From: Pseudomonadota bacterium
Lineage (GTDB): Bacteria; Desulfobacterota; Desulfobacteria; Desulfobacterales; C00003060
Reading direction: 5' to 3'
NCBI GenBank assembly: GCA_015222985.1
Contig: JADFWI010000071.1
Span: forward strand, 1 to 31,720
DNA length: 31,720 bases
This document shows, in pieces, positions 123 through 31,126 of this stretch. Each line of letters starts with the position of its first letter. The stretch's first letter is position 1. The notes beneath the pieces were generated by a model. It was not told the DNA's origin. It did not search any database and was given only the letters and a program-made list of their open reading frames with translations. The position numbers were made by a program, and so were the translations under genes.

Positions 123-183
123 AGATGCAGCGCCTCTTTGAAGCTGTGTTTTGCGCGGCCAAAGAAGTACTGGAGGTGCTGCA

Positions 184-3100
184 ATGTCACCACGATTTTA
201 CATAGCAAAGTCTTTACGAACCCGGGTTTTCAGTCTTTCCTTTTTTCGGTTTCTGTCCTTTGTCATTCTCCTCTCTGGTATCCTGGTATTTCCTCAAAAT
301 GCCTGTGCAGTAGAGGTAACATTGGCCTGGGACGCCAATGGCGAAGAAGACCTTGAAGGTTACAGGATTTTTTATCGCGAAGATGGCCAGAATCACGATT
401 ACGATAATCCGGCCTGGCAAGGCACTGCCACAACATGCACGATTTCGGGTCTGGATGACAATACGACTTACCATTTTGTGGCAAGGGCTTATGATACTTC
501 GGATAATGAAAGCACCGATTCCGATGAGGCCACATATCAGAGTTATACGCTCCTGTTAAGCACATCGTCAGACCGCTCAAACTCAGTGTCATTGCAGAGT
601 GAAACAGTGACTGGTAACATCTTTGTCTTCACCGGCCCTGATGAAGGTGTCGAGCAGGTGAGTTTTTATCTGGATGACCCGGACATGAACGGAGCCCCTC
701 GGCAGGTCGAAGAAGTCATCCACTATGATTTTGCGGGCACTGCCGGTGATGACTCTGCCAACCCTTTTGATACTACTCAGATCTCCAACGGGCAACACGA
801 GATCACCGCGTTCATCGAGTTGACGGCCGGTGGCAGTCGAACTGTGAGCGCTACATTTACCGTAGCCAACAGCACAAACACGCCGCCCACAGCCGACAAC
901 CAGTCCGTAAGTACCCATGAAGACATATCCGTGAGTATGACACTGACTGCCACCGATGTTGATGGAGACAGCCTTACGTACACGTTAGTCGACCAGACGT
1001 CGCATGGAACATTATCAGGCACGGCCCCCAACCTGACCTATTCGCCCGACGTGAACTACAACGGTTCAGACAGTTTTAGCTTCAAAGCTAACGATGGCCA
1101 GAGTGACTCGGAACTTGGCACTGTAAGCATTACGCTAACCGCCGTAAACGATGCCCCCGTAGCCAATGATCAATCTGTCTATACAGACGAAGACACGGCA
1201 ATTAGCGGTACTCTGGACGCCAGTGATGTAGATGGTGACGCACTCACGTATGTGCTTGTAACCAGTGGAAGCAAGGGCACGGCATCGGTAACCAATTCAT
1301 CAACCGGCGCCTTCATATACACCCCAAATCAAAACGCTAATGGTACTGACACCTTCACCTTTAAGGCCAATGACGGCACCACAGACTCGAACACAGCAAC
1401 GGTTACGGTGACTATTACTCCTGTAAATGACGCCCCCGTGCTTGACAGCATCGGCGCAAAGAGCGTAGACGAAGACTCGCTGCTTACATTTACCGTCACG
1501 GCAACAGATGCGGACGGCGACACGCTCACATACTCTGCCGGAAACCTTCCTACGGGCTCAAGCTTTGATGCTGACACACAGAGCTTTGCCTGGACCCCGG
1601 GCTACGGTTCTGCCGGAAACTATACGGTAACCTTTACGGTGACTGACAGCGGCACTCCGGCCCAGAGCGATTCCGAGCAGGTAACGATCACTGTGGGTGA
1701 CGTTAATAGACCGCCTACAGCCGATGCAGGTGACGAGCAGAGCGTTGACGAGGGAGATACGGTTACTTTGGATGGCTCAGGTTCATTTGATCCTGACGGC
1801 ACCATTTCTTACAGTTGGTCCCAGCAAGCAGGGCCGACCACAACATTGTCTGATGCATCGGCAGTCCGGCCTTCATTCACGGCTCCGGATGTTGAAGAGG
1901 ATGGCGCAACGCTATCCTTTCAGTTGACAGTGACCGACAATGGTGGACTCGAATCGACAGCCACCTGCATTGTGTATGTTTCCTGGGTAGACGACTCCCC
2001 TGCCCTCACCAGCCTGTCCATTAGCGGGTCGAGTTCGGTAGCGGAAAACAGCACCTCTAACTACACAGCCACGGCCACATTCAGCGACGGGAGCACTCAA
2101 ACTGTTACCGCAAGCGCTGACTGGAGCGAGGAGTCATCTTATGCCGGCATTAGCGGTAGCGGCGTGCTTTCCGCGTCAGAGGTAACTGGCGACGAGACAG
2201 TGACTATTACGGCAAGCTATACTTCTTCTGGTGTGACAAAGACGGATCAGAAGTTGGTGACGATCACAGATGTGCCGGAATCCAATCTTCCCTCTTCAAC
2301 ACCGGTTATCGCATCTCCCTACGACGGCCAGATGGAGTGTGACCTTATGCCGAGCATTACCACCGAGGCTTTCTCAGATCCTGATGGGGACCCGCAGAGC
2401 CAAAGTCAATGGCAAATCAGCAAACAAGAGGACATCTCGTCCCTGATTCTTGATATTACTACCACCGATCAGCTCGTAGAACTGCCCGTTCCCCACACGA
2501 TGCTTGAAGCAGACACGACATATTATGTGCGCGTCCGATTTTACGATGTACATGGTGAGGCCTCTGACTGGTCAGACACTGTTGAGTTCACCACCACTAT
2601 TGACGACAACGATGTTGACGGTAACGGTGTCCCAGACGATCAGGAAGTTGGCGACGATGTGGACCTCAATGAAGATGGCGTTGCTGACAACGACCAGCCA
2701 GGCGTCATCAAATGCGCACAATACGTTTCTAACAATGTCACCGTTGGCGTTGGCAAGGCGTCTAATTCCGTAACTGCCATAGAAAGCGTTGAAACGATTG
2801 AGCCATCAAGCGTTTTTGACAATCCCTTGGTAGAATTCACAACAGGGCGCAATATTATCAAACAAAAAAGCTTGATATTCGGACTGTTTTCCTATCGGAT
2901 TCGCGTGAACGAGCCCGGAGCTTCAGCTACGGTGAAGATTTATTTCTCGAAAAAGATTTCACCGGGTTCAATCTTCTGCAAATATGACACGGTCAGTGGC
3001 TGGCAGGACTACTCCGAACATACGATTTTTGAGAAAAATCGCAGGTCTATTACCCTGGAAGTCAAAGACGGCGGCTATGGGGATAGCGATGGAGTGGCCA

Positions 3101-3423
3101 ATGGCATCATCCTCGATCCAGGTGGAATTGCCGAAACAAGCAGTGGAGAGGATGGATCTGCCTTGAGTGGTGACACAAGCATTGGATGTTTCATTAATAC
3201 TGCCGGATTTGACTCAGACTCATGTGAGGAGTCCAGCAAAATCGTCGGCTCATGTGAGCCCGTTATGCGACTAATAGTAGTCCCTCTGGTAGGAATCAGG
3301 TATGTTCTTGTTAATGCTTTTGGGACGACCGGCACCGTAGCCGGACTCCTGCTCGCAGCGTTGTTTCTGGCTGGCTTGCTACGGAACCATGGCAGGTTAC
3401 TCTCAGGAAGTCAGGAATCATAG
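184..3423 (+). CDS. Large secreted/surface protein (putative adhesin): signal peptide, FN3, Ig-like domain, 2 cadherin-like Big_9-type repeats, putative-Ig, PKD/REJ, BIG_2-like, FN3-like, DxDxNG Ca-binding repeats, choice-of-anchor U domain, CFI-box-like C-terminal membrane anchor
   Basis: ATG at 184 with GGAGG at 172-176 (the ORF track starts at TTG 151). Hydrophobic signal ends QNACA. FN3 'VTLAWDAN..DLEGYRIFY..TTYHFVARAYD'; 'NTPPTADNQSV.T.ED..LTATDVDGDSLTY' type repeated twice; 'NRPPTADAGDEQSVDEGDTVTLDGSGSFDPDG'; 'ITLEVKDGGYGDSDGVANGIILDPGG'; 'GCFI' then a hydrophobic helix and a basic residue. Confidence 0.9.
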   Translation: MSPRFYIAKSLRTRVFSLSFFRFLSFVILLSGILVFPQNACAVEVTLAWDANGEEDLEGYRIFYREDGQNHDYDNPAWQGTATTCTISGLDDNTTYHFVARAYDTSDNESTDSDEATYQSYTLLLSTSSDRSNSVSLQSETVTGNIFVFTGPDEGVEQVSFYLDDPDMNGAPRQVEEVIHYDFAGTAGDDSANPFDTTQISNGQHEITAFIELTAGGSRTVSATFTVANSTNTPPTADNQSVSTHEDISVSMTLTATDVDGDSLTYTLVDQTSHGTLSGTAPNLTYSPDVNYNGSDSFSFKANDGQSDSELGTVSITLTAVNDAPVANDQSVYTDEDTAISGTLDASDVDGDALTYVLVTSGSKGTASVTNSSTGAFIYTPNQNANGTDTFTFKANDGTTDSNTATVTVTITPVNDAPVLDSIGAKSVDEDSLLTFTVTATDADGDTLTYSAGNLPTGSSFDADTQSFAWTPGYGSAGNYTVTFTVTDSGTPAQSDSEQVTITVGDVNRPPTADAGDEQSVDEGDTVTLDGSGSFDPDGTISYSWSQQAGPTTTLSDASAVRPSFTAPDVEEDGATLSFQLTVTDNGGLESTATCIVYVSWVDDSPALTSLSISGSSSVAENSTSNYTATATFSDGSTQTVTASADWSEESSYAGISGSGVLSASEVTGDETVTITASYTSSGVTKTDQKLVTITDVPESNLPSSTPVIASPYDGQMECDLMPSITTEAFSDPDGDPQSQSQWQISKQEDISSLILDITTTDQLVELPVPHTMLEADTTYYVRVRFYDVHGEASDWSDTVEFTTTIDDNDVDGNGVPDDQEVGDDVDLNEDGVADNDQPGVIKCAQYVSNNVTVGVGKASNSVTAIESVETIEPSSVFDNPLVEFTTGRNIIKQKSLIFGLFSYRIRVNEPGASATVKIYFSKKISPGSIFCKYDTVSGWQDYSEHTIFEKNRRSITLEVKDGGYGDSDGVANGIILDPGGIAETSSGEDGSALSGDTSIGCFINTAGFDSDSCEESSKIVGSCEPVMRLIVVPLVGIRYVLVNAFGTTGTVAGLLLAALFLAGLLRNHGRLLSGSQES

Positions 3424-17646: not shown

Positions 17647-17698
17647 CAAAAATCCTTCCAAGAATCGGGAATATCCCAAGTTTCTATTATGTAGTTAT

Positions 17699-18102
17699 GT
17701 CAGAGTAGGCCGTAAGCCGAGTTCTGTTTTCCGTATCGGTCACCCTTTACGGAACAACGATCATTCATCTTGGGGTGTTGATTGCTCAAAACCTCTTGCG
17801 ACCAACCCGGAAGCTCGGACGGGCCGTCCTCAAGTGCTTCCCTATTCGGTCTTGCTCCAGGTGGGGTTTACCTAGCTTCCCCGGTCACCCAGGGAACTGG
17901 TGCGCTCTTACCGCACCTTTTCACCCTTACCCTCCGAGACAGGCACAAGGCCAATCCCTTAAGGCGGTGTGTTTTCTGTGGCACTTTCCTTCGCGTCACC
18001 GCGACTCCGCGTTACGGAGCACCCTGCCCTGTGGAGCTCGGACTTTCCTCCCGCATCCATGACTATGTCGAAGATGCGAGCGATCGTTTGGCCTACTCTG
18101 AC
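17699..18102 (-). ncRNA. rnpB: RNase P RNA (bacterial type A)
   Basis: Minus strand carries the universal GAGGAAAGTCCGAGCTCC near the 5' end, AAGGAAAGTGCCACAGAAAA internally and AACAGAACTCGGCTTA near the 3' end. P1 is perfect: GTCAGAGTAGGCC pairs with GGCCTACTCTGAC. Confidence 0.98.
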
Positions 18103-20110: not shown

Positions 20111-20186
20111 TGGTGGGCCCACCTGGGTTCGAACCAGGGACCTACCGGTTATGAGCCGGTGGCTCTTCCAGCTGAGCTATGGGCCC
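20111..20186 (-). tRNA. ileX: tRNA with CAT anticodon, most likely tRNA-Ile2 (lysidine-modified); CCA encoded
   Basis: GGGCCCATAGCTCAGCTGGAAGAGCCACCGGCTCATAACCGGTAGGTCCCTGGTTCGAACCCAGGTGGGCCCACCA, 76 nt. G1-C72 is paired (not an initiator); C4-G69/C5-G68 are TilS-type determinants; position downstream of rpoD matches E. coli ileX. Ile2 rather than elongator Met is an inference. Confidence 0.9.
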
Positions 20187-20239: not shown

Positions 20240-21985
20240 CTACATTTCCAAAAAGGCTTTCAGTTTGCGGCTTCTCGTAGGATGGCGAAGCTTTCTCAGT
20301 GCCTTTGCTTCAATTTGCCTGATCCTCTCACGGGTCACATGAAAGTCCTTTCCCACCTCTTCAAGGGTATGGTCAGCCTTTTCACCAATGCCAAATCGCA
20401 TCCGCAATACCTTTTCTTCACGGGGAGTCAGTGTAGCCAGTGATTTTCGGGTCTGCTCTGCGAGGTTCAGGCTAATGGCCGCCTCAGAGGGTGACATGAA
20501 TTTCTTGTCCTCAATAAAGTCGCCAAGATGGCTGTCTTCTTCCTCTCCGATAGGCGTCTCCAGAGAGATAGGCTCCTTGGCAATTTTTAGGACCTTGCGG
20601 ACTTTTTCCAAAGGAAACTCCATTTTTTCGGCAATTTCATCTGGAGTGGGTTCCCGCCCAAGTTCCTGGACCAAATATCGCGAGGTACGAATCAGCTTAT
20701 TAATGGTTTCAATCATGTGCACAGGGATTCGGATGGTGCGAGCCTGATCAGCAATGGCCCTTGTGATCGCTTGCCTAATCCACCACGTTGCATATGTGCT
20801 GAACTTGTAACCTCGTCTGTACTCAAATTTGTCAACGGCCTTCATGAGACCCACATTTCCTTCCTGAATCAGGTCAAGGAACTGAAGCCCCCGATTTGTA
20901 TATTTCTTTGCTATACTGACAACTAACCTTAAGTTCGCATTCACCATTTTTGCTTTGGCGACCCGAGTATTTTGTTGACCTTGTATGATTCGGGCCAAGA
21001 TCCGTTTTAGGCCCTGAGCGTTCATTTTTAGATCGAGTTCCTGTTGCCGGATAGCCTCATCTATTTCACCGGCTCGTTTCACAAGCTTGGAAAACTCGCT
21101 TTTCTGTAGGTTGCTTTGTTTCCAGTGCTTATCAACAAATCTTGTTCTCGCCTTGGAACCATTGCGCATTTGACTCAAAGTGACACCTGCCCGATAAGCA
21201 CACTGGGCAAATTCTTTTCCCAGTGCCTCAAAGCGTGCGATATGGTTTTCGACCTCATCAACAATAGAATCGATCCATCTTGACTCTAGTCTCCAATCCT
21301 TGATGTCGTCGAAGATTTTGCGATTCCTCCGATTGATGCAGCGCCTAACCCGGCGACGTTCTTCCCGACCCAGTCGCGGTCCAAACAGCCGTTTCCTGTA
21401 CTTTTCATTCTCTTCGTCGATCATGTTGATGATATCAACGATGTTACAAATCTTTTGTATATGTTCGGCTTCCTCAATATAAGTATCGATTTCATCTACA
21501 TCGCGCAGGACGTCCCTCAAGCGGATCTTGCCATTTCGAAGGTCTTTGACAACGCTGATTATCCCTCTAACTCCCACTGTTGAGTCCACCAGAGTCTTCA
21601 ATACCTCCTGTTCTCCTGCCTCGATCTGTTTGGCGATTTCGACTTCCCCCTCTCGGCTCAGCAAGGAGACCAAACCCATTTCGCGAAGGTACATTTTAAC
21701 GGGATCTGTGACGCGCCCGAAAGCGTCCTTCTCTGGTTGCGCGGGAGGCTTTGACTTCACAAGAGGATGTTTGCGCACAATCTTTTTTTCAAGAGCCCTG
21801 ATTTCCCTTCCATCGATGATTTCAATATCGAGTTCATCAAAAACCATCATCATTTCGTCTATTTGCTCGGCAGAAACATTGCCATTCGGCAACGCATCAT
21901 TAAGCTCCTCATAGGTAAGGTAGCCCTGCTTTTTTCCTTTTGTGATGAGTTGTTTTAAATCGTGAACCTCGGACTTCTTGGGCAT
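20240..21985 (-). CDS. rpoD: RNA polymerase primary sigma factor sigma70
   Basis: Region 1.1 '[17 protein letters not shown]', 1.2 '[24 protein letters not shown]', region 2 '[58 protein letters not shown]', region 4 '[28 protein letters not shown]'. Confidence 0.99.
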
Positions 21986-22028
21986 AAAAATCTCCTTCCA
22001 AACAAGTCTTGTGGTTTTGAGCCAGCCC

Positions 22029-23783
22029 TTATTGAAGGGCGTTCAAGCGTTCGTGTACGTGTCTCTGTTTTTCTGCAAGAAGTCTATGCAATAGGGCTTC
22101 GTCTTTTGCCTTCTCAGCCTCTTTGATCCGTCTTAGAAGCTCTCTTTCTCGCTTCCTTCTCAGATGAGCTTCGTATTGACTTACAATCTTAGAGCAACTA
22201 TCTCGATCCCATGATTCCTCTTCCACAGCGAGGGAAGATATCACGCTTCTTACTTGAGGATCATCAGTCTGTGCGATCAAATCTGCAGAAACATATGGGC
22301 GATTTGCCGCAGATCTGTCCAAAATCATTTTGCCAACTTTTCTCAGCGTCGTTGCTTCCATGCTCTCAACAATCTCCCTGGTATCAAAACCAGACAAGAT
22401 GTCAGGAGATTGAAGCATCATGGCTATGATGGTTTCTTCCAGCTTCGAACCATTGCGGGGCCTGGCCGGGAAAACCCTCTTCTTGCTCTTTTGAACCGAG
22501 GTGCGAATCTGTTCTAAGATGGCGGACTCGTCAATATTGAGGCGCTCAGCCAAATTCTTCACATAAACCGCCCTGCTCACACTGTCCGCCAATGCACCGA
22601 GTGGACCTTTCAACGCTTCCACGATCTTTATCTTCCCCTGCAAAGAGAGACCGTGCTTCTTGATGGCCGATGCCATGACAAATTCCATCATCGATAAGGC
22701 TCGTTCGGCCGTCTGGCAAAATTGATCGCCACCTGCTTCAAGGACATAGGAATCCGGATCCTTGCCTTCAGGAAGACTCATGATGCGGGCATCTACCTTT
22801 TCTTGCACGAACAGGGGAAGGCTGCGCTCAGCGGCTTTCAAGCCTGCTTCATCGGAGTCAAATACGAGGGTAACATGCTTGGCATGACCCTTGAGAATTC
22901 GCATATGTTCCCTGGTAATGGCTGTTCCCAGAGTCGCAACCACATTATTGATGCCGTGACAGCTTAGAGCCAATAGATCAAAGTAACCCTCCACGACAAA
23001 GACCGAACCGCTCTGGCGGCATGCTGCTTTAGCAACTGGCAAGCCGTACAAAGTTCGACTCTTATGATAAACAGGAGTCTCGGGTGAGTTAAGGTATTTG
23101 GGAAGGCTCTCATCCAAACAACGTCCGCCAAAGCCGACCACCCTTTCATGAATATCTACAATAGGAAATATTATACGATCCCGAAACCGATCATAATATC
23201 CTCCTCTTTTGGGAACGATCAACCCGGCCTTTTCAACATCTTCGAGGGGCGTTCCTTTAGCCGAAAAACAACCAACAATGTTGCTCCAGCCGCCCGGGGC
23301 ATAACCCAGGCAAAAGCGATCAATGACATCTGATGTTATCTTTCGTTTCCTTAGATACTCCCTGGCAACCCTGCCCGAGGGGGATTTCAGCAGCTTGTCT
23401 TTGAAATAGTCAACAGCCTCTTGATTTATCTTAAACAGCCGTTCTTTTTCTTCCAACTGTCGTTTCTGGGCAGGCGACATGTGTCTGGTCGGGATCTCGA
23501 TTCCATACTTTCGGGCCAGGAACTTGACGGCTTCTGGAAAGCTGAGATTGTGATAGAGCATCAAAAAGCTGAAGACATTTCCGCCCTTGCCGCAACCAAA
23601 ACAATGAAATATCTGCTTTTCTTCGGTCACTGTAAAAGACGGGGCCTTTTCGGCATGGAATGGACACAACCCCACGAAATTCTTCCCGGCCTTTTTCAAA
23701 GCAACGTGCTGTGCAATCACATCAACGATATTGGCTGCATTAAGTACGTCAGCAACCTTATCGTTTGGTATTAAACCCGTCAA
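22029..23783 (-). CDS. dnaG: DNA primase
   Basis: Zn finger '[23 protein letters not shown]', '[11 protein letters not shown]', 'PKYLNSPET', TOPRIM 'VVEGYFD', 'FDSDEAG', 'DPDS'. GGAGGG lies 9 nt before TTG 23783 (track start 23810). Confidence 0.98.
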
Positions 23784-24037
23784 AGCAGATGACCCTCCAG
23801 GCGCACACAAGCACCCGTAGCTTTTCTCAATAACGACCCTTTTCCGGAAAAACAGGAATAGTTCCAGGGTATTATGGCACTACTAGGCGCAGACGTGCCG
23901 GTATGCGCAACGAGACGGGACGTCGTCAGGATTGCTAGCTCCACAAAGAAAGGGTTTGTAAGTACTGTTTTTGGCGCAGAATCTCTGATAAACTTTACAA
24001 ATAAGAATTCTAAGGCGATTTGTCAAGACATAAAAGT

Positions 24038-25256: not shown

Positions 25257-25286
25257 TTGACACGCATGAGAACACTATGATAGTTT
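25257..25286 (+). promoter_or_regulatory. Possible sigma70 promoter for the acidic protein gene
   Basis: TTGACA at 25257-25262, then TATGAT (13 bp spacer) or TAGTTT (18 bp spacer). The spacing is not ideal. Confidence 0.3.
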
Positions 25287-25380
25287 TTTGAAGAAAATCA
25301 GGAAGTAGAGGAGTTTGTTTCTCCTTTTCTGCTATTGGCGGCAGATTTTTACCGGCAACCTAATCAAAGGAAACGTAATC

Positions 25381-26118
25381 ATGGATACCGACAACAAGAA
25401 CAAGGAAGGTCAGATATCCGAAGATGCTGGGGATCTCTCATTGTCATATGATGATGAGAATCTCGTGATGGAGGGATCCGGAAATGAACCTGGTTCATCG
25501 GAAGACCTTTTTCTTGAGACAGAAGCCGAGGGGGAAGACGAAGTCATTGAACTGGTCGATGCCGTGACAGAGGAGTCGGAAGGCCAAGATGTCTTGGAAT
25601 TGACTGACCGGGTTGAGGACCAAGGTTCTCAGGCCGAGGAAGAGGATTTGTTGGAGTTTTCAGGGGCTGAGCTTGCTCCCGATGAGCCTGATGAAGATGG
25701 CCTCGCAGAAGATGTTGGCATGGAGATTACCGAGGAGCGCCCCGAGATGCCTGTTGCCGAGGAACCAGTAGACGATTTGGAGATATCCCAGGACCTCCGA
25801 GATGCCGCAGTTGAAGGGGACGAAATCCCAGAAGATCTTGGAGGATTCGGTGAATCAGATGTAGAAGAGGATGCCGGTGAACTGGTGGAGCCGTCGGTTT
25901 CATATCCTGAGCAGGGGCTGGTTTCAGAAGCTGGAGCGCAACCGGCCGATAAGGCGCTGGAACCCGCGATTCTTGAAAGGCTTTCTGACGAAAGGATAGA
26001 AGAAATCGTTACGCGTGTAGCAAGGGAAGCAGTAGAGAAAAAGGCCGATCGAATACTCCTTGAAGTTGCCGAGGCAGCCATTGCAAAGGAGATAGAAAGA
26101 ATCAAACAAGCGCTTTGA
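25381..26118 (+). CDS. Highly acidic, largely disordered protein with a C-terminal PopZ/RomR-type helical domain
   Basis: 245 aa from ATG 25381 (AAAGGA upstream); 81 D/E (about 33%) by hand count. Motifs 'EDEVIELVD' and 'DVLELTD'. C-terminus 'LSDERIEEIVTRVAREAVEKKADRILLEVAEAAIAKEIERIK'. Confidence 0.8.
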   Translation: MDTDNKNKEGQISEDAGDLSLSYDDENLVMEGSGNEPGSSEDLFLETEAEGEDEVIELVDAVTEESEGQDVLELTDRVEDQGSQAEEEDLLEFSGAELAPDEPDEDGLAEDVGMEITEERPEMPVAEEPVDDLEISQDLRDAAVEGDEIPEDLGGFGESDVEEDAGELVEPSVSYPEQGLVSEAGAQPADKALEPAILERLSDERIEEIVTRVAREAVEKKADRILLEVAEAAIAKEIERIKQAL

Positions 26119-26162: not shown

Positions 26163-26196
26163 AGGGGGTTAAGTCTGTTAATCCCCTTTTATATTT
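26163..26196 (+). terminator. Possible intrinsic terminator after the acidic protein gene
   Basis: AGGGGGTTAA-GTCTG-TTAATCCCCT, a 10 bp stem with one G-U pair, followed by TTTATATTT. Confidence 0.5.
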
Positions 26197-26263
26197 CAGT
26201 TTGGGAAACTTGGTCCTTTGGACCAGGTTAGAGTCATTGGTTTTGTCATACTTGGTTCCATCG

Positions 26264-26366
26264 AAATGCCAAAAGTGCCTAAAATGCCAAAAGTGCCTAA
26301 AGTTAAGAACAGAACGTGCAACCCCGATTTTAGGCATTTTACAATTTTAGGCATTCTAGGCATTTT
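26264..26366. repeat. Inverted pair of 9-nt-unit tandem arrays (TGCCTAAAA-like / TTTTAGGCA) upstream of valS
   Basis: AAATGCCAAAAGTGCCTA x2 (26264-26299) faces TTTTAGGCA-TTTTACAA-TTTTAGGCA-TTCTAGGCA (26328-26362) across a ~25 nt spacer. Confidence 0.8.
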
Positions 26367-26474
26367 TTTCTCAGGCACTCATGAGTTTGCGAAGCGCCAG
26401 GCCCCCTCAGGGGGCCAGATCAAGGCCATGTCCCCTGGGCATGAATTCTTTACCAGTTTTGGGAGCACGATTAG

Positions 26475-29180
26475 ATGAGTTCGGATATACTCAAGAAGGG
26501 CTACGAACCACAAGAGGTGGAAGAACGATGGTATGCATATTGGGAAAAGGAAGGCCTCTTTGCAGCCGGGGAAGTTAGCGCCGGAGAACCCTTTTCGATT
26601 GTCATCCCACCGCCCAACGTGACCGGGGTCCTGCACATGGGCCATGCCCACAACAACACATTGCAGGACATCCTTTGTCGCTATCGCCGCATGCAAGGTT
26701 ACAATGTGCTTTGGATGCCGGGGACGGACCATGCCGGCATTGCTACCCAGAATGTTGTGGAAAAGGGCTTGGCTACGGAAGGAAAAGACCGGCACAGCCT
26801 GGGGCGTGAGGAATTCATCAAAACGGTGTGGCAGTGGAGGGAGCAATACGGCGGCCTGATCATCAAGCAGTTGAAGCGCCTGGGGGCTTCGTGCGACTGG
26901 GCTCGTGAGCGCTTCACCATGGACGATGGGCTGTCTAAGGCCGTAAGGACTGTCTTTGTGAAGCTCTTTGAACAAGGCCTGGTTTATCAAGGCAACTATA
27001 TCATCAATTGGTGCCCTCGTTGCCAAACAGCCCTGTCAGACCTGGAAGTGGACCACGAGGACCACAACGGACACCTGTACTACATCAGGTATCCCTTTGA
27101 AAACGGAGAGGGCGGAGTTGTTGTGGCAACCACCCGCCCTGAGACCATGCTGGGTGATACAGCGGTGGCAGTCAATCCCAAAGACCAGCGCTACAGTGCA
27201 CAGGAACGCACAAACGTGATACTGCCCCTGATGAACAGAAAAATCCCCATTATTTTTGACGAATATGTTGACATGAGATTCGGAACCGGCGCCCTGAAAA
27301 TTACTCCTGCACACGATCCCCATGACTTTGAGATAGGTCAGCGTCACAACCTTGACTCGATAAAGGTGATAGACAGCGATGGCTGCATGAATGAGAACGC
27401 AGGCCCTTTCCATGGAAAGGATCGTTTCAGATGCAGGGAAGAGGTGCTCGATGCCCTCAAAAGGGAAGGCCTTCTCGAGAAGGTAGAGTCATACCAGCAC
27501 AGCGTGGGACATTGCTACCGGTGTCGAACAACCGTAGAGCCCTATCTGTCCAAGCAGTGGTTTGTCAGGGTCGAGCCCCTTGCAAAAAAGGCCATTGCCG
27601 CGGTCCAGAGGGGGGACACCCGTATCATACCGGACACGTGGACCAAGACATATTTTGAGTGGATGAACAATATCAAGGACTGGTGTATCTCACGGCAAAT
27701 CTGGTGGGGCCATCGTATCCCGGCCTGGACATGTGAGGCCTGCGGTGAACTGATCGTGGCCATGGATCCGCCCGAAGCGTGCCCTGCCTGTGAGGGCAGC
27801 GCCCTTGTTCAGGAGTCCGACGTTCTGGACACCTGGTTCAGCTCTGCGCTCTGGCCTTTTTCAACCATGGGCTGGCCTGACGATACCCGGACCTTAAAGA
27901 CCTTTTACCCGACCTCCGTCTTGGTTACCGGGTTTGACATCCTTTTTTTCTGGGTTGCACGAATGATGATGATGGGGCTCCATTTTATGGGGGAGGTCCC
28001 CTTCAGGGATGTATATATTCACGCTCTGGTCAGGGATGCTGAGGGGAAAAAGATGAGCAAATCAAAGGGAAATGTCATCGATCCTCTCTATGTGATCAAC
28101 GAGTTTGGCACGGATGCCTTAAGGTTTACCCTGGCGGCCTTTGCAGCCCAGGGACGGGACATAAAACTATCCGAGGAGAGGATAGAAGGCTACCGTCACT
28201 TTATCAACAAGCTTTGGAACGCTTCCCGCTTTTCCCTTATGCATCTGAAGGATTTCGATCCCGATTCCTTCAAAATGATCGACCGGGATCTTTCACTGGC
28301 AGATAGATGGATTCTTGCCAGGCTAAACGGTGTGATCGAAACTGTGACACAAACCCTTGATGAGTACAAATTCAACGAAGCAGCAGGCGCCATTTATCAG
28401 TTTGTGTGGCATGAATTCTGTGACTGGTACCTGGAAATCATCAAGCCAGTGCTCTACGGACATGAGTCGGCAGAAGGTTCCGGTAACGGGTCAGGGGAGG
28501 GCGCCGAGCCCTCGGGGCGTAAGACCGCCTTGTTTACGCTTTGGTCGGTTTTGAACGAGATCCTGCGTTTGCTCCATCCTTTTGTCCCGTTTGTTACCGA
28601 GGAGATCTGGGATAAACTTCCCGGCGCTGAAGGCTCAATCATGAGAGCGGAATTTCCTGCGAGCGCGAAGGAGCGATATGACGCAGAGGCTGAAAGGAGC
28701 ATGAACCTCCTCATGGGCATCACAAACGGCATACGCAATATCAGGGGTGAGATGAACGTTCCTCCATCCTTGCTTGTGGAGGCCACTGTTCAGTCCCCTG
28801 ACGAGAAGATGCGCCAGACTCTTGACAAACACCGCAATATCATTGTCAACCTGGCAAAGCTGGCGCGTTTGGAGGTAACGCCGCCTGGCGAGAGACCGGC
28901 CTCATGTGCCACTTCCGTCTTTGGCAACAGCACCATATTTGTCTCCTTGAAGGACATCATAGATTTCAAGGCCGAAGAAGAGCGTCTGAGCAAAGGGATT
29001 GCGAAAATTACCAAAGAGCTGGAGGGCGTTGAAAGAAAATTGAACAACGAGGCTTTCCTCACCAGGGCCCCACAAGATGTCGTGGAAGGAGTACGAGCAA
29101 AGCAGGAAGACTTTTTGGAAAAGAAAGACAGATTGGAAGAGCACTTGAGGACCGTGTGCCGGATTGCCGGTGATTCATGA
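26475..29180 (+). CDS. valS: Valine--tRNA ligase
   Basis: 'IPPPNVTGVLHMGHA' (HIGH), 'DHAGIATQ', 'VATTRPETMLGDTAVAV', 'DWCISRQIWWGHRIP', 'DVLDTWFSSALWPF', 'KMSKSKGN', and a C-terminal coiled coil. Confidence 0.99.
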   Translation: MSSDILKKGYEPQEVEERWYAYWEKEGLFAAGEVSAGEPFSIVIPPPNVTGVLHMGHAHNNTLQDILCRYRRMQGYNVLWMPGTDHAGIATQNVVEKGLATEGKDRHSLGREEFIKTVWQWREQYGGLIIKQLKRLGASCDWARERFTMDDGLSKAVRTVFVKLFEQGLVYQGNYIINWCPRCQTALSDLEVDHEDHNGHLYYIRYPFENGEGGVVVATTRPETMLGDTAVAVNPKDQRYSAQERTNVILPLMNRKIPIIFDEYVDMRFGTGALKITPAHDPHDFEIGQRHNLDSIKVIDSDGCMNENAGPFHGKDRFRCREEVLDALKREGLLEKVESYQHSVGHCYRCRTTVEPYLSKQWFVRVEPLAKKAIAAVQRGDTRIIPDTWTKTYFEWMNNIKDWCISRQIWWGHRIPAWTCEACGELIVAMDPPEACPACEGSALVQESDVLDTWFSSALWPFSTMGWPDDTRTLKTFYPTSVLVTGFDILFFWVARMMMMGLHFMGEVPFRDVYIHALVRDAEGKKMSKSKGNVIDPLYVINEFGTDALRFTLAAFAAQGRDIKLSEERIEGYRHFINKLWNASRFSLMHLKDFDPDSFKMIDRDLSLADRWILARLNGVIETVTQTLDEYKFNEAAGAIYQFVWHEFCDWYLEIIKPVLYGHESAEGSGNGSGEGAEPSGRKTALFTLWSVLNEILRLLHPFVPFVTEEIWDKLPGAEGSIMRAEFPASAKERYDAEAERSMNLLMGITNGIRNIRGEMNVPPSLLVEATVQSPDEKMRQTLDKHRNIIVNLAKLARLEVTPPGERPASCATSVFGNSTIFVSLKDIIDFKAEEERLSKGIAKITKELEGVERKLNNEAFLTRAPQDVVEGVRAKQEDFLEKKDRLEEHLRTVCRIAGDS

Positions 29181-30079: not shown

Positions 30080-31126
30080 GTGATGAGATACTGCGCAATA
30101 GAATATGCCATTCCCAGCAAGCTTGTAACCAATACTGAAATTATTCAGGAAATCGTTTTCAGGAGCAAACGTTATCTAACGGAGAAGGCGCTGAATTTGC
30201 TGGAATCTAAGATGGAGGAACTGTTCGAAAAAGCAGTCACCTCGGTGCGATATCACCGTGCGAAAAACGAACGGGCCATCCAGTTTGGCATTGAGGCTGG
30301 CATGAATGCCTTAAAGTCAGCCAACATGTCTCCCAAGGATATTGATCTCTTGATATACGTTGGCGTTGGAAGAGGGTATATTGAGCCTGCAACTGCCAAT
30401 GTTTTTCAGAAAATGCTTAAACTGAAGAAAGCCACTTGTTTTGACATACTGGATGCCTGTGCAAGCTGGCTCAGGGCGATTCATGTGGCCCATTCGTTCA
30501 TAAAGACCGGCATGTACAAGAATGTGATGATCTTAAACTGCGAGTTCAACTTCCGGGAGTATGCCAATTTTGAGTTCAGGTCCATAAAAGATATTGAGTT
30601 CAATTTCCCCACGTTTACGATTGGAGAAGCGGCAACGGCCACAATTGTCACTGATTCAGAAGCGGATGATGAGTACTACACCTCTTTCAGGACGTGGGGA
30701 GACCGTCATAACCTGTGTAAAATACCGCTTCCCCATTTCAGCGAATATAGCGATGGCGAGCTAAGAAATGAAATTGAACCTCTGAGGTTTTTCTCCTATG
30801 GCGAGAAGATATTTCGATTTGTGTTTGCGAGATTATGTAAGCACTACCGTGAAGACACGGTAGTGAATAATTTCAAGCACGAAATCGTCTTTAGCCATGC
30901 TGCCAGCGATGCAATGAGCGACAGAGTAATCAAGTCGTGCAAGCTGGGCGAAAACAAGGGTTACAACACTCACAAACGATTTGGAAACACGGTCTCTGCT
31001 TCAGTGCCCTTGGCTATGGCTTGTGCCATGAAAGACGGGAAGTTAAAGAACAACACCAACGTCCTCACCGGTTTCGGGTCTGCCGGTGTTTCTACTGCAT
31101 GGTCCAAGTTCAAGTTTCTAACCTGA
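30080..31126 (+). CDS. FabH/OleA-like thiolase-fold condensing enzyme (KAS III family)
   Basis: 'RGYIEPATA' (E102), 'TCFDILDAC' (C127), 'FTIGEAATA', 'FSHAAS' (H273), 'FGNTVSASVP' (N303), 'GFGSAG'. Confidence 0.88.
   Translation: MMRYCAIEYAIPSKLVTNTEIIQEIVFRSKRYLTEKALNLLESKMEELFEKAVTSVRYHRAKNERAIQFGIEAGMNALKSANMSPKDIDLLIYVGVGRGYIEPATANVFQKMLKLKKATCFDILDACASWLRAIHVAHSFIKTGMYKNVMILNCEFNFREYANFEFRSIKDIEFNFPTFTIGEAATATIVTDSEADDEYYTSFRTWGDRHNLCKIPLPHFSEYSDGELRNEIEPLRFFSYGEKIFRFVFARLCKHYREDTVVNNFKHEIVFSHAASDAMSDRVIKSCKLGENKGYNTHKRFGNTVSASVPLAMACAMKDGKLKNNTNVLTGFGSAGVSTAWSKFKFLT

Follow-up and report, generated by a model that had tools for sequence, protein, structure and literature searches.

A receiver-less protein with a RomR-C-type tail, encoded upstream of valS in Desulfobacterota, probably links the RomR and PopZ pole scaffolds

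What kind of protein is encoded by the strongly acidic open reading frame that lies directly upstream of valS in a Desulfobacterota genome, and is it related to known organisers of the cell pole? The question concerns a 31,720-nucleotide stretch of DNA (hereafter the window), for which a preliminary description had proposed that positions 25381-26118 encode a receiver-less RomR relative connecting the PopZ and RomR families. PopZ and RomR are the two best-studied pole scaffolds of Gram-negative bacteria. PopZ is restricted to alpha-proteobacteria according to Lasker et al. (PMC9512792), and RomR-C has been called non-homologous to characterized domains (PMC3441718). No proposal of RomR-PopZ homology was found in our literature search (subscription journals being outside its scope), in which RomR papers mention PopZ as an assay tool only.

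As to the gene itself, the preliminary description was exact for its coordinates, as the open reading frame runs on the + strand from an ATG at 25381 to a stop codon at 26116-26118. It was equally right about acidity, announced as about one third D/E (81 of 245 residues, 33.1%), and about the strings it quoted, which are all present: EDEVIELVD (aa 52-60), DVLELTD (aa 70-76), and the C-terminal IEEIVTRVAREAVEKKADRILLEVAEAAIAKEIERIK (aa 206-242). However, the protein (P0001; 26.6 kDa, pI about 4.05) is 245 aa long instead of about 190, and its basic residues number 16, made up of 9 R and 7 K, instead of five. They are that scarce only in aa 1-195 (6 K/R versus 69 D/E), the last 50 aa comprising 10 K/R and 12 D/E.

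P0001 starts with a conserved N-terminus, MDTDxKNKE (aa 1-9, 25381-25407), identified in an alignment of its homologues (alignment A1). It is followed by an acidic linker (aa 10-195, 25408-25965) which is probably disordered, judging from its composition and from its varying length and sequence in homologues; over aa 1-190, Pro accounts for 5% and Gly for 9% of residues, and the net charge per residue is -0.33. The linker carries two copies of a motif resembling that of PopZ, EVIELVD (aa 54-60, 25540-25560) and DVLELTD (aa 70-76, 25588-25608), the latter being found unchanged in real PopZ proteins, as well as a family-specific motif, EDVGMEI (aa 110-116, 25708-25728). An amphipathic helical domain (aa 196-245, 25966-26115) ends the protein and contains invariant and near-invariant columns in alignment A1.

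A ribosome-binding site, AGGA, can be read 9 nt 5' of the ATG (25368-25371), and a hairpin resembling a terminator, with a 10-bp stem and a T-rich tail, is found 45 nt after the stop codon (26163-26197). A sigma-70-like promoter candidate, TTGACA-16 nt-GATAGT (25257-25284), lies ~100 nt 5' of the ATG; it is a consensus match only, and a weak one because one such site was found for 1.1 expected in shuffled sequences. No Rfam match was detected in the gene or its flanks. Pieces of the gene were recovered from four metatranscriptome runs, including a 246-nt piece that is identical (contig X17), as would be expected of a transcribed gene, with carried-over DNA as a possible other source. We rejected the reading of 25381-26118 as a spurious open reading frame, given conservation across the phylum and presence in RNA libraries. 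In Pfam and NCBIfam, P0001 (in full or as its last 56 aa) gave only sub-threshold matches (Mannitol_dh_C, TPR_Slam, and PopZ_fam at 16 bits), which, taken alone, we regarded as noise or bias.

Homologues were gathered by word-indexed and exhaustive phmmer searches, yielding 48 cluster representatives at E<=1e-3 (about 50 proteins in the family, hereafter family A). All representatives are annotated as 'hypothetical' and, where named, belong to Desulfobacterales or Deltaproteobacteria MAGs. They share one plan in alignment A1: an N-terminal MDTDxKN, PopZ-type motifs, a variable acidic linker, and a nearly invariant tail forming a helix of ~45 aa (LSDEKIEAIITRVV..EKKADRILLEVAEAAIAKEIEKIKQAL). 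The PopZ-type motif occurs in one to four copies per member, as (E/D)E(I/V)IEL(T/V)D with consensus EEIIELTD. An EDxGME-type motif is found in 19 of the 50 members of family A and in 6 of the 18 members of a shorter subfamily B (P0079, P0087-P0106), which was added by profile search; at most 3 occurrences were obtained in shuffled sets, and none in 94 PopZ or 84 RomR sequences. The profile search also recovered a group of ~330-aa proteins of like plan and P0098, named 'DUF2497 domain-containing protein' in UniRef. When the phylum was searched with a further alignment (A3), 97 of 401 Desulfobacterota genomes gave matches, essentially one per genome (two genomes have two adjacent matches each). 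Some of these matches include a receiver (REC) domain, and the single match per genome suggests that receiver-less and REC-bearing forms are alternatives at one locus.

The clearest kinship of P0001 is with RomR. Using hhalign with profiles that we built ourselves and scored without secondary structure, the family A tail matches RomR-C (84 sequences) over 60 columns with P=2.5e-10 and a probability of 96.8%, and subfamily B matches it with P=2.6e-8. The last ~45-50 aa of P0001 are thus a RomR-C-type amphipathic helical domain. Similarly, a RomR-C HMM run against the 27,063 six-frame ORFs (>=50 aa) of the source genome ranked P0001 first (E=0.0056), the next ORF having E=10. Therefore, no canonical RomR was found in this 85%-complete genome, and P0001 is its only RomR-C-like protein. 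No receiver domain was detected in P0001 (no PF00072 match at E<=10), whereas PF00072 is matched by the RomR-like proteins P0080, P0126, and L132. Both parts of the proposed 'receiver-less RomR relative' are thus borne out, and we are highly confident that the gene is real and that P0001 is a novel form, devoid of a receiver, within the RomR-C family.

The REC-bearing relatives connect this family to typical RomR proteins. The distant matches P0080 and P0126 combine an N-terminal receiver domain, an acidic linker and a family-type tail, P0126 also carrying EEEIIELVD. Among the 30 best loci of the phylum, five (L132, L144, L145, L147, and L150) encode a receiver, a linker and a tail of the type ...EIIEKIAWEVVPELAETLIKEEIKKLK; this is the RomR architecture, including the Trp and Pro reported as invariant in RomR-C (Keilberg 2012, PMC3441718). 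Using L132 as a query, we retrieved 86 RomR-type proteins from Geobacteraceae, Desulfuromonadales, Myxococcales, and Polyangia, which end in ...IEKIAWEVVPELAETLIKEEI.KLK.

Compared with Myxococcus xanthus RomR (receiver, linker, and RomR-C), P0001 has a Glu-rich helical tail of ~45 aa in the same register, a probably disordered linker before this tail, and a gene directly 5' of valS, as in RomR loci of Desulfobacterota, Geobacter and a Myxococcales MAG. It differs by the lack of a receiver, by Asp and Leu at the positions aligned with the invariant Trp and Pro, by an acidic linker (5% Pro) where that of RomR is Pro-rich, and by its PopZ-type motifs, as opposed to the (D/E)(D/E)-hydrophobic-W-(G/D) motif of 30 of the 84 RomR linkers. 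A hypothetical protein of Geobacter pickeringii (P0140) is receiver-less and acidic, has a RomR-C tail, and is encoded ~100 nt upstream of valS like a member of the P0001 family, but it keeps the RomR-C Trp and Pro as well as the Trp-type linker motif and has no PopZ-type motif. In Desulfobacterota, six proteins encoded 5' of valS (L170, L193, L163, L185, L179, and L186) are receiver-less with one N-terminal motif of the IIDLVEVVEE type, and their tails have kept the RomR-C Pro and not the Trp (e.g. REIVPRVAEEVIVREIERLK); they are intermediates between the P0001 family and canonical RomR-C.

The chromosomal position of these genes provides a second line of evidence. The preliminary description had named valS as a neighbour of popZ and romR and noticed it beside P0001, where it starts 357 nt past the gene (26475-29180, + strand). 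Our survey upheld this synteny on all three sides. For the P0001 family, valS lies directly downstream on the same strand at all 30 of the 30 best phylum loci. Among the 40 weaker phylum matches, 31 stretches include the start of valS, and 28 of these 31 have an ORF of the superfamily immediately upstream; many of these ORFs are REC-bearing RomR, others lack the receiver, carry the motif, and have a tail that contains Pro, so that the weaker loci show a graded series of receiver-less and RomR forms. Receiver-less and REC-bearing forms therefore occupy the same slot upstream of valS. For popZ, already reported beside valS in Caulobacter and Agrobacterium (PMC5686542), valS is the next gene on the same strand in 63 of the 71 loci with enough downstream sequence. 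Finally, valS also follows a Myxococcales RomR-like gene and the receiver-less RomR-C gene of G. pickeringii, and it is not adjacent to a Polyangia RomR-like gene.

The short linker motif of P0001 points to PopZ. To obtain PopZ genes, we searched species genomes with the N-terminal helix in back-translated form, which gave 94 non-redundant proteins; of four checked against the NCBIfam PopZ_fam model (cut-off 125 bits), three scored 139-189 bits and the fourth (Brucella) 109. The expression [DE][VIL][ILVF][DE]L[TVSI][DEQ] is matched in 44 of the 50 members of family A (90 copies), in all 18 members of subfamily B, and in 52 of the 94 PopZ proteins (one copy each, of the DDILELTD/DEVLELTD type), but in only 2 of the 84 canonical RomR and in at most 3 members of residue-shuffled sets, a pattern well beyond chance. 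Conversely, the Trp-containing motif of RomR linkers is absent from family A, subfamily B, and PopZ. Taken with the tail match, these counts indicate that the P0001 family joins a PopZ-type linear motif to a RomR-type tail. As a class, the PopZ and RomR strings from which the preliminary description argued proved sound, for motifs (the 52 PopZ proteins above), for RomR-type tails, and for the PopZ C-terminus, that of a Caulobacter sp. PopZ (L075, 188.6 bits against PopZ_fam) ending exactly in ...LEDVVRELLRPLLKEWLDQNLPRIVETKVEEEVQRI....

Is P0001 then itself a PopZ? Direct comparisons give little: P0001 has no Pfam match to DUF2497 (PF10691), it scores 16.2 bits with a high bias term against PopZ_fam (NF052660), far from the cut-off of 125 bits, and an HMM of the PopZ C-terminus alone, used to search the complete set of six-frame ORFs from the genome, did not retrieve it. 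A language-model search for look-alikes returned DUF2497 as the only named family (a lead only), and five subfamily B proteins (P0079, P0091, P0094, P0095, and P0103) gave sub-threshold DUF2497 matches of 13-20 bits, all ending at profile position 73 of 75. Direct membership in PopZ/DUF2497 is thus a weakly supported part of the original interpretation, while RomR kinship, valS synteny, and the PopZ-RomR link are supported.

Profile-profile comparisons reach further. Family A against full-length PopZ yields P=0.012 and its tail against the PopZ tail P=2.9e-4 (score 23.3). Subfamily B, which is firmly tied to family A (P=1e-23), comes closer, with P=1.9e-5 against full-length PopZ and P=6e-7 (92%) between tails, and RomR-C itself matches the PopZ tail with P=4.6e-5. 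When family A, the bridging subfamily B, and RomR-C were merged in one profile (110 tails), the comparison with the H3H4 domain of PopZ gave a score of 34.7 (P=8e-7, 91.6%), against 9.0±2.1 (maximum 14.4) for column shuffles and 15.1 for the reversed alignment. Across the tail comparisons, column-shuffled PopZ tails scored 9-10 ± 2 (maxima 14-17) and reversed ones 10-16. All tail alignments are in one register, with ...EIERv.R opposite ...EIEkiK, and the Pro of RomR-C aligns with P157 of PopZ, at the H3/H4 junction. A motif common to PopZ and not to canonical RomR, together with C-terminal profiles in a single register, sustains the proposal that P0001 links the two families.

P0001 resembles the alphaproteobacterial PopZ in its three-part layout, where short hydrophobic-acidic elements at the N-terminal side are followed by an acidic IDR and then by a helical domain at the C-terminus, in its (D/E)(V/I)(L/F)(E/D)LT(D/E) motif, in having valS directly downstream, and in the profile similarity of its C-terminus to H3H4. 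It differs in lacking the H1 helix (MEEILASIRRII) and the H2 region, in carrying several copies of the motif (two here, and up to four in the family) where PopZ has a single one, in its low Pro content, and in scores far under curated cut-offs. The absence of the PopZ N-terminal helix, noted in the preliminary description, is literally true, yet a weak colinear hhalign alignment (P=0.026) places family motif 1 opposite H1 and motif 2 opposite the DVLELTE of PopZ. PopZ residues W151/L152 and P146, reported as important (PMC12999525), have no equivalents in P0001. Overall, the PopZ link is weaker than the RomR link but consistent, and we regard deep homology between the P0001 family and PopZ as likely.

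Under the main alternative, only the RomR-C kinship is real, the likeness to PopZ reflecting convergence of acidic hubs and the position beside valS reflecting coincidence or selection for co-expression. Glu-rich amphipathic helices can indeed converge, which is a point against a common superfamily; the helices concerned are short and of low complexity, direct scores of P0001 against PopZ models are sub-threshold, and the P values of the family against PopZ remain modest, both for full-length sequences and for C-termini. However, this alternative fits poorly with scores lying 7 to 13 standard deviations over column-shuffled controls and clearly over reversed ones, with a register kept in every pairwise link, with the RomR-C Pro aligned to PopZ P157 at the H3/H4 junction, with a motif shared specifically with PopZ, with colinear elements, and with valS directly downstream in both family and popZ loci. 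We therefore consider this alternative unlikely. The RomR-type tail, the PopZ-type motifs, and the valS position together suggest that the P0001 gene probably links two pole-scaffold families which have been treated as unrelated. Our preferred reading, which we hold to be reasonably probable, is that P0001 is a receiver-less member of a superfamily holding RomR and, more distantly, PopZ, and typically encoded directly upstream of valS. A common origin of PopZ, RomR, and the receiver-less Desulfobacterota family in a single valS-linked ancestor, whose product was an acidic pole scaffold able to self-assemble, is, on balance, slightly favoured.

What such a protein might do can be proposed from its better-known relatives. 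RomR-C alone is enough for polar localisation in M. xanthus (PMC3441718), and in PopZ, H3H4 forms a trimeric coiled coil leading to hexamers and filaments, with the acidic IDR working against assembly and H1 serving as the client-binding element (PMC12999525). By analogy with RomR-C and PopZ H3H4, the tail of P0001 would drive self-association and pole targeting; its strongly negative linker may act as a repulsive spacer tuning assembly, like the PopZ IDR; and the two hydrophobic-acidic motifs could, like PopZ H1, either dock partner proteins or be auto-inhibitory. With no receiver, P0001 would have neither phosphorylation input nor RomX binding through a REC domain, and would therefore be a constitutive, not a switchable, hub. 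From these analogies, we tentatively lean towards P0001 being a self-associating, probably polar, hub protein.

A different role would follow if P0001 were a functional RomR minus its receiver, that is, a pole-bound adaptor in the MglA polarity module that recruits MglA or the regulators of MglA via its linker or RomR-C, and not a general PopZ-like hub. RomR co-occurs with MglA/MglB (PMC3441718), the C-terminus of P0001 is closest to RomR-C, and the source genome encodes a GTPase of the MglA type with the diagnostic YTVPGQ motif, followed by a DUF4388 (PATAN-like)/cNMP-binding protein (contig C501/L156, 1577-3385). As no canonical RomR was found in this genome, P0001 could be its only RomR equivalent. 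Yet the receiver on which RomX is reported to dock (bioRxiv 10.1101/2024.02.20.581209) is missing from P0001, and PopZ-type motifs replace the Trp-containing motifs of RomR linkers (30 of 84). Moreover, no Roadblock/MglB match was obtained at E<=0.01 in the 85%-complete genome, nor beside mglA on the short contig C501. Finally, an MglA-like GTPase (E<=1e-20) was found in 11 of the 24 genomes with the receiver-less form, leaving 13 without a match at this threshold, versus 5 of the 6 genomes with the REC-bearing form; these genomes are few and related, and their distribution hints that the role of the receiver-less form is not tied to MglA. An MglA adaptor thus appears doubtful. The last alternative, in which P0001 acts with valyl-tRNA synthetase or in translation (e.g. 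as an acidic regulator or chaperone), so that adjacency reflects functional coupling and not history, would account for a valS neighbourhood exceptionally conserved across phyla, but we judge it very improbable, as the members that have been studied by experiment, PopZ and RomR, act in polarity and no connection to ValRS is reported for them (PMC3441718, PMC9512792), as the P0001 gene has its own terminator-like hairpin and is separated from valS by a repeat element, and as at least one RomR-like gene (Polyangia) lies away from valS.

The preferred superfamily reading makes P0001 a candidate pole organiser for anaerobic sulfate reducers. If common ancestry is true, PopZ-type organisers are not an alphaproteobacterial invention, and RomR is a scaffold that gained a receiver domain, with the P0001 family as an intermediate. 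The combination of a PopZ motif and a RomR tail at the same chromosomal position makes this ancestry testable by domain swaps and oligomer structures, and hub assembly could be studied across the natural range of acidic linkers within the family.

The source genome (G000; 647 contigs, 85% complete) carries a dsrA that scores over its curated cut-off, and it recurs in metagenomes from cold seeps and sediments. The repeat element preceding valS is a multi-copy element of 266 bp (26191-26456, strand not assigned), located between the terminator and valS and thus outside the P0001 gene. Its sequence combines direct repeats of 9 nt (AAATGCCAA/AAGTGCCTA) with inverted arms. Other contigs of the genome hold at least 8 long copies, 77-90% identical, besides many fragments, and the element is covered to very high depth in RNA libraries. 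In the contig of a related strain the element is absent, 26190 being joined to 26457. It looks like a MITE-like insertion.

Upstream of the P0001 gene lies an HD/HD_assoc, dGTPase-like phosphohydrolase gene, which we rejected as a conserved neighbour as only the genome's own locus has it. The rpoD-dnaG pair is found in the same window on the - strand (20240-23810), adjoined by a tRNA gene (20114-20186, - strand), and an RNase P RNA of class A (322 bits) is located at 17698-18099 (- strand). On the other side, valS shares 4 nt (ATGA, 29177-29180) with the ORF that follows it, read as nadC, which suggests translational coupling, and a FabH-like gene lies beyond the putative nadC (30080-31126). 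At the start of the window, a c-di-GMP-I-GGC riboswitch (74 bits, 32-122) directly precedes the gene for a 1090-aa protein (151-3423) built from Big_9, cadherin-like, PKD and fn3 domains, which is a candidate surface adhesin under c-di-GMP control.
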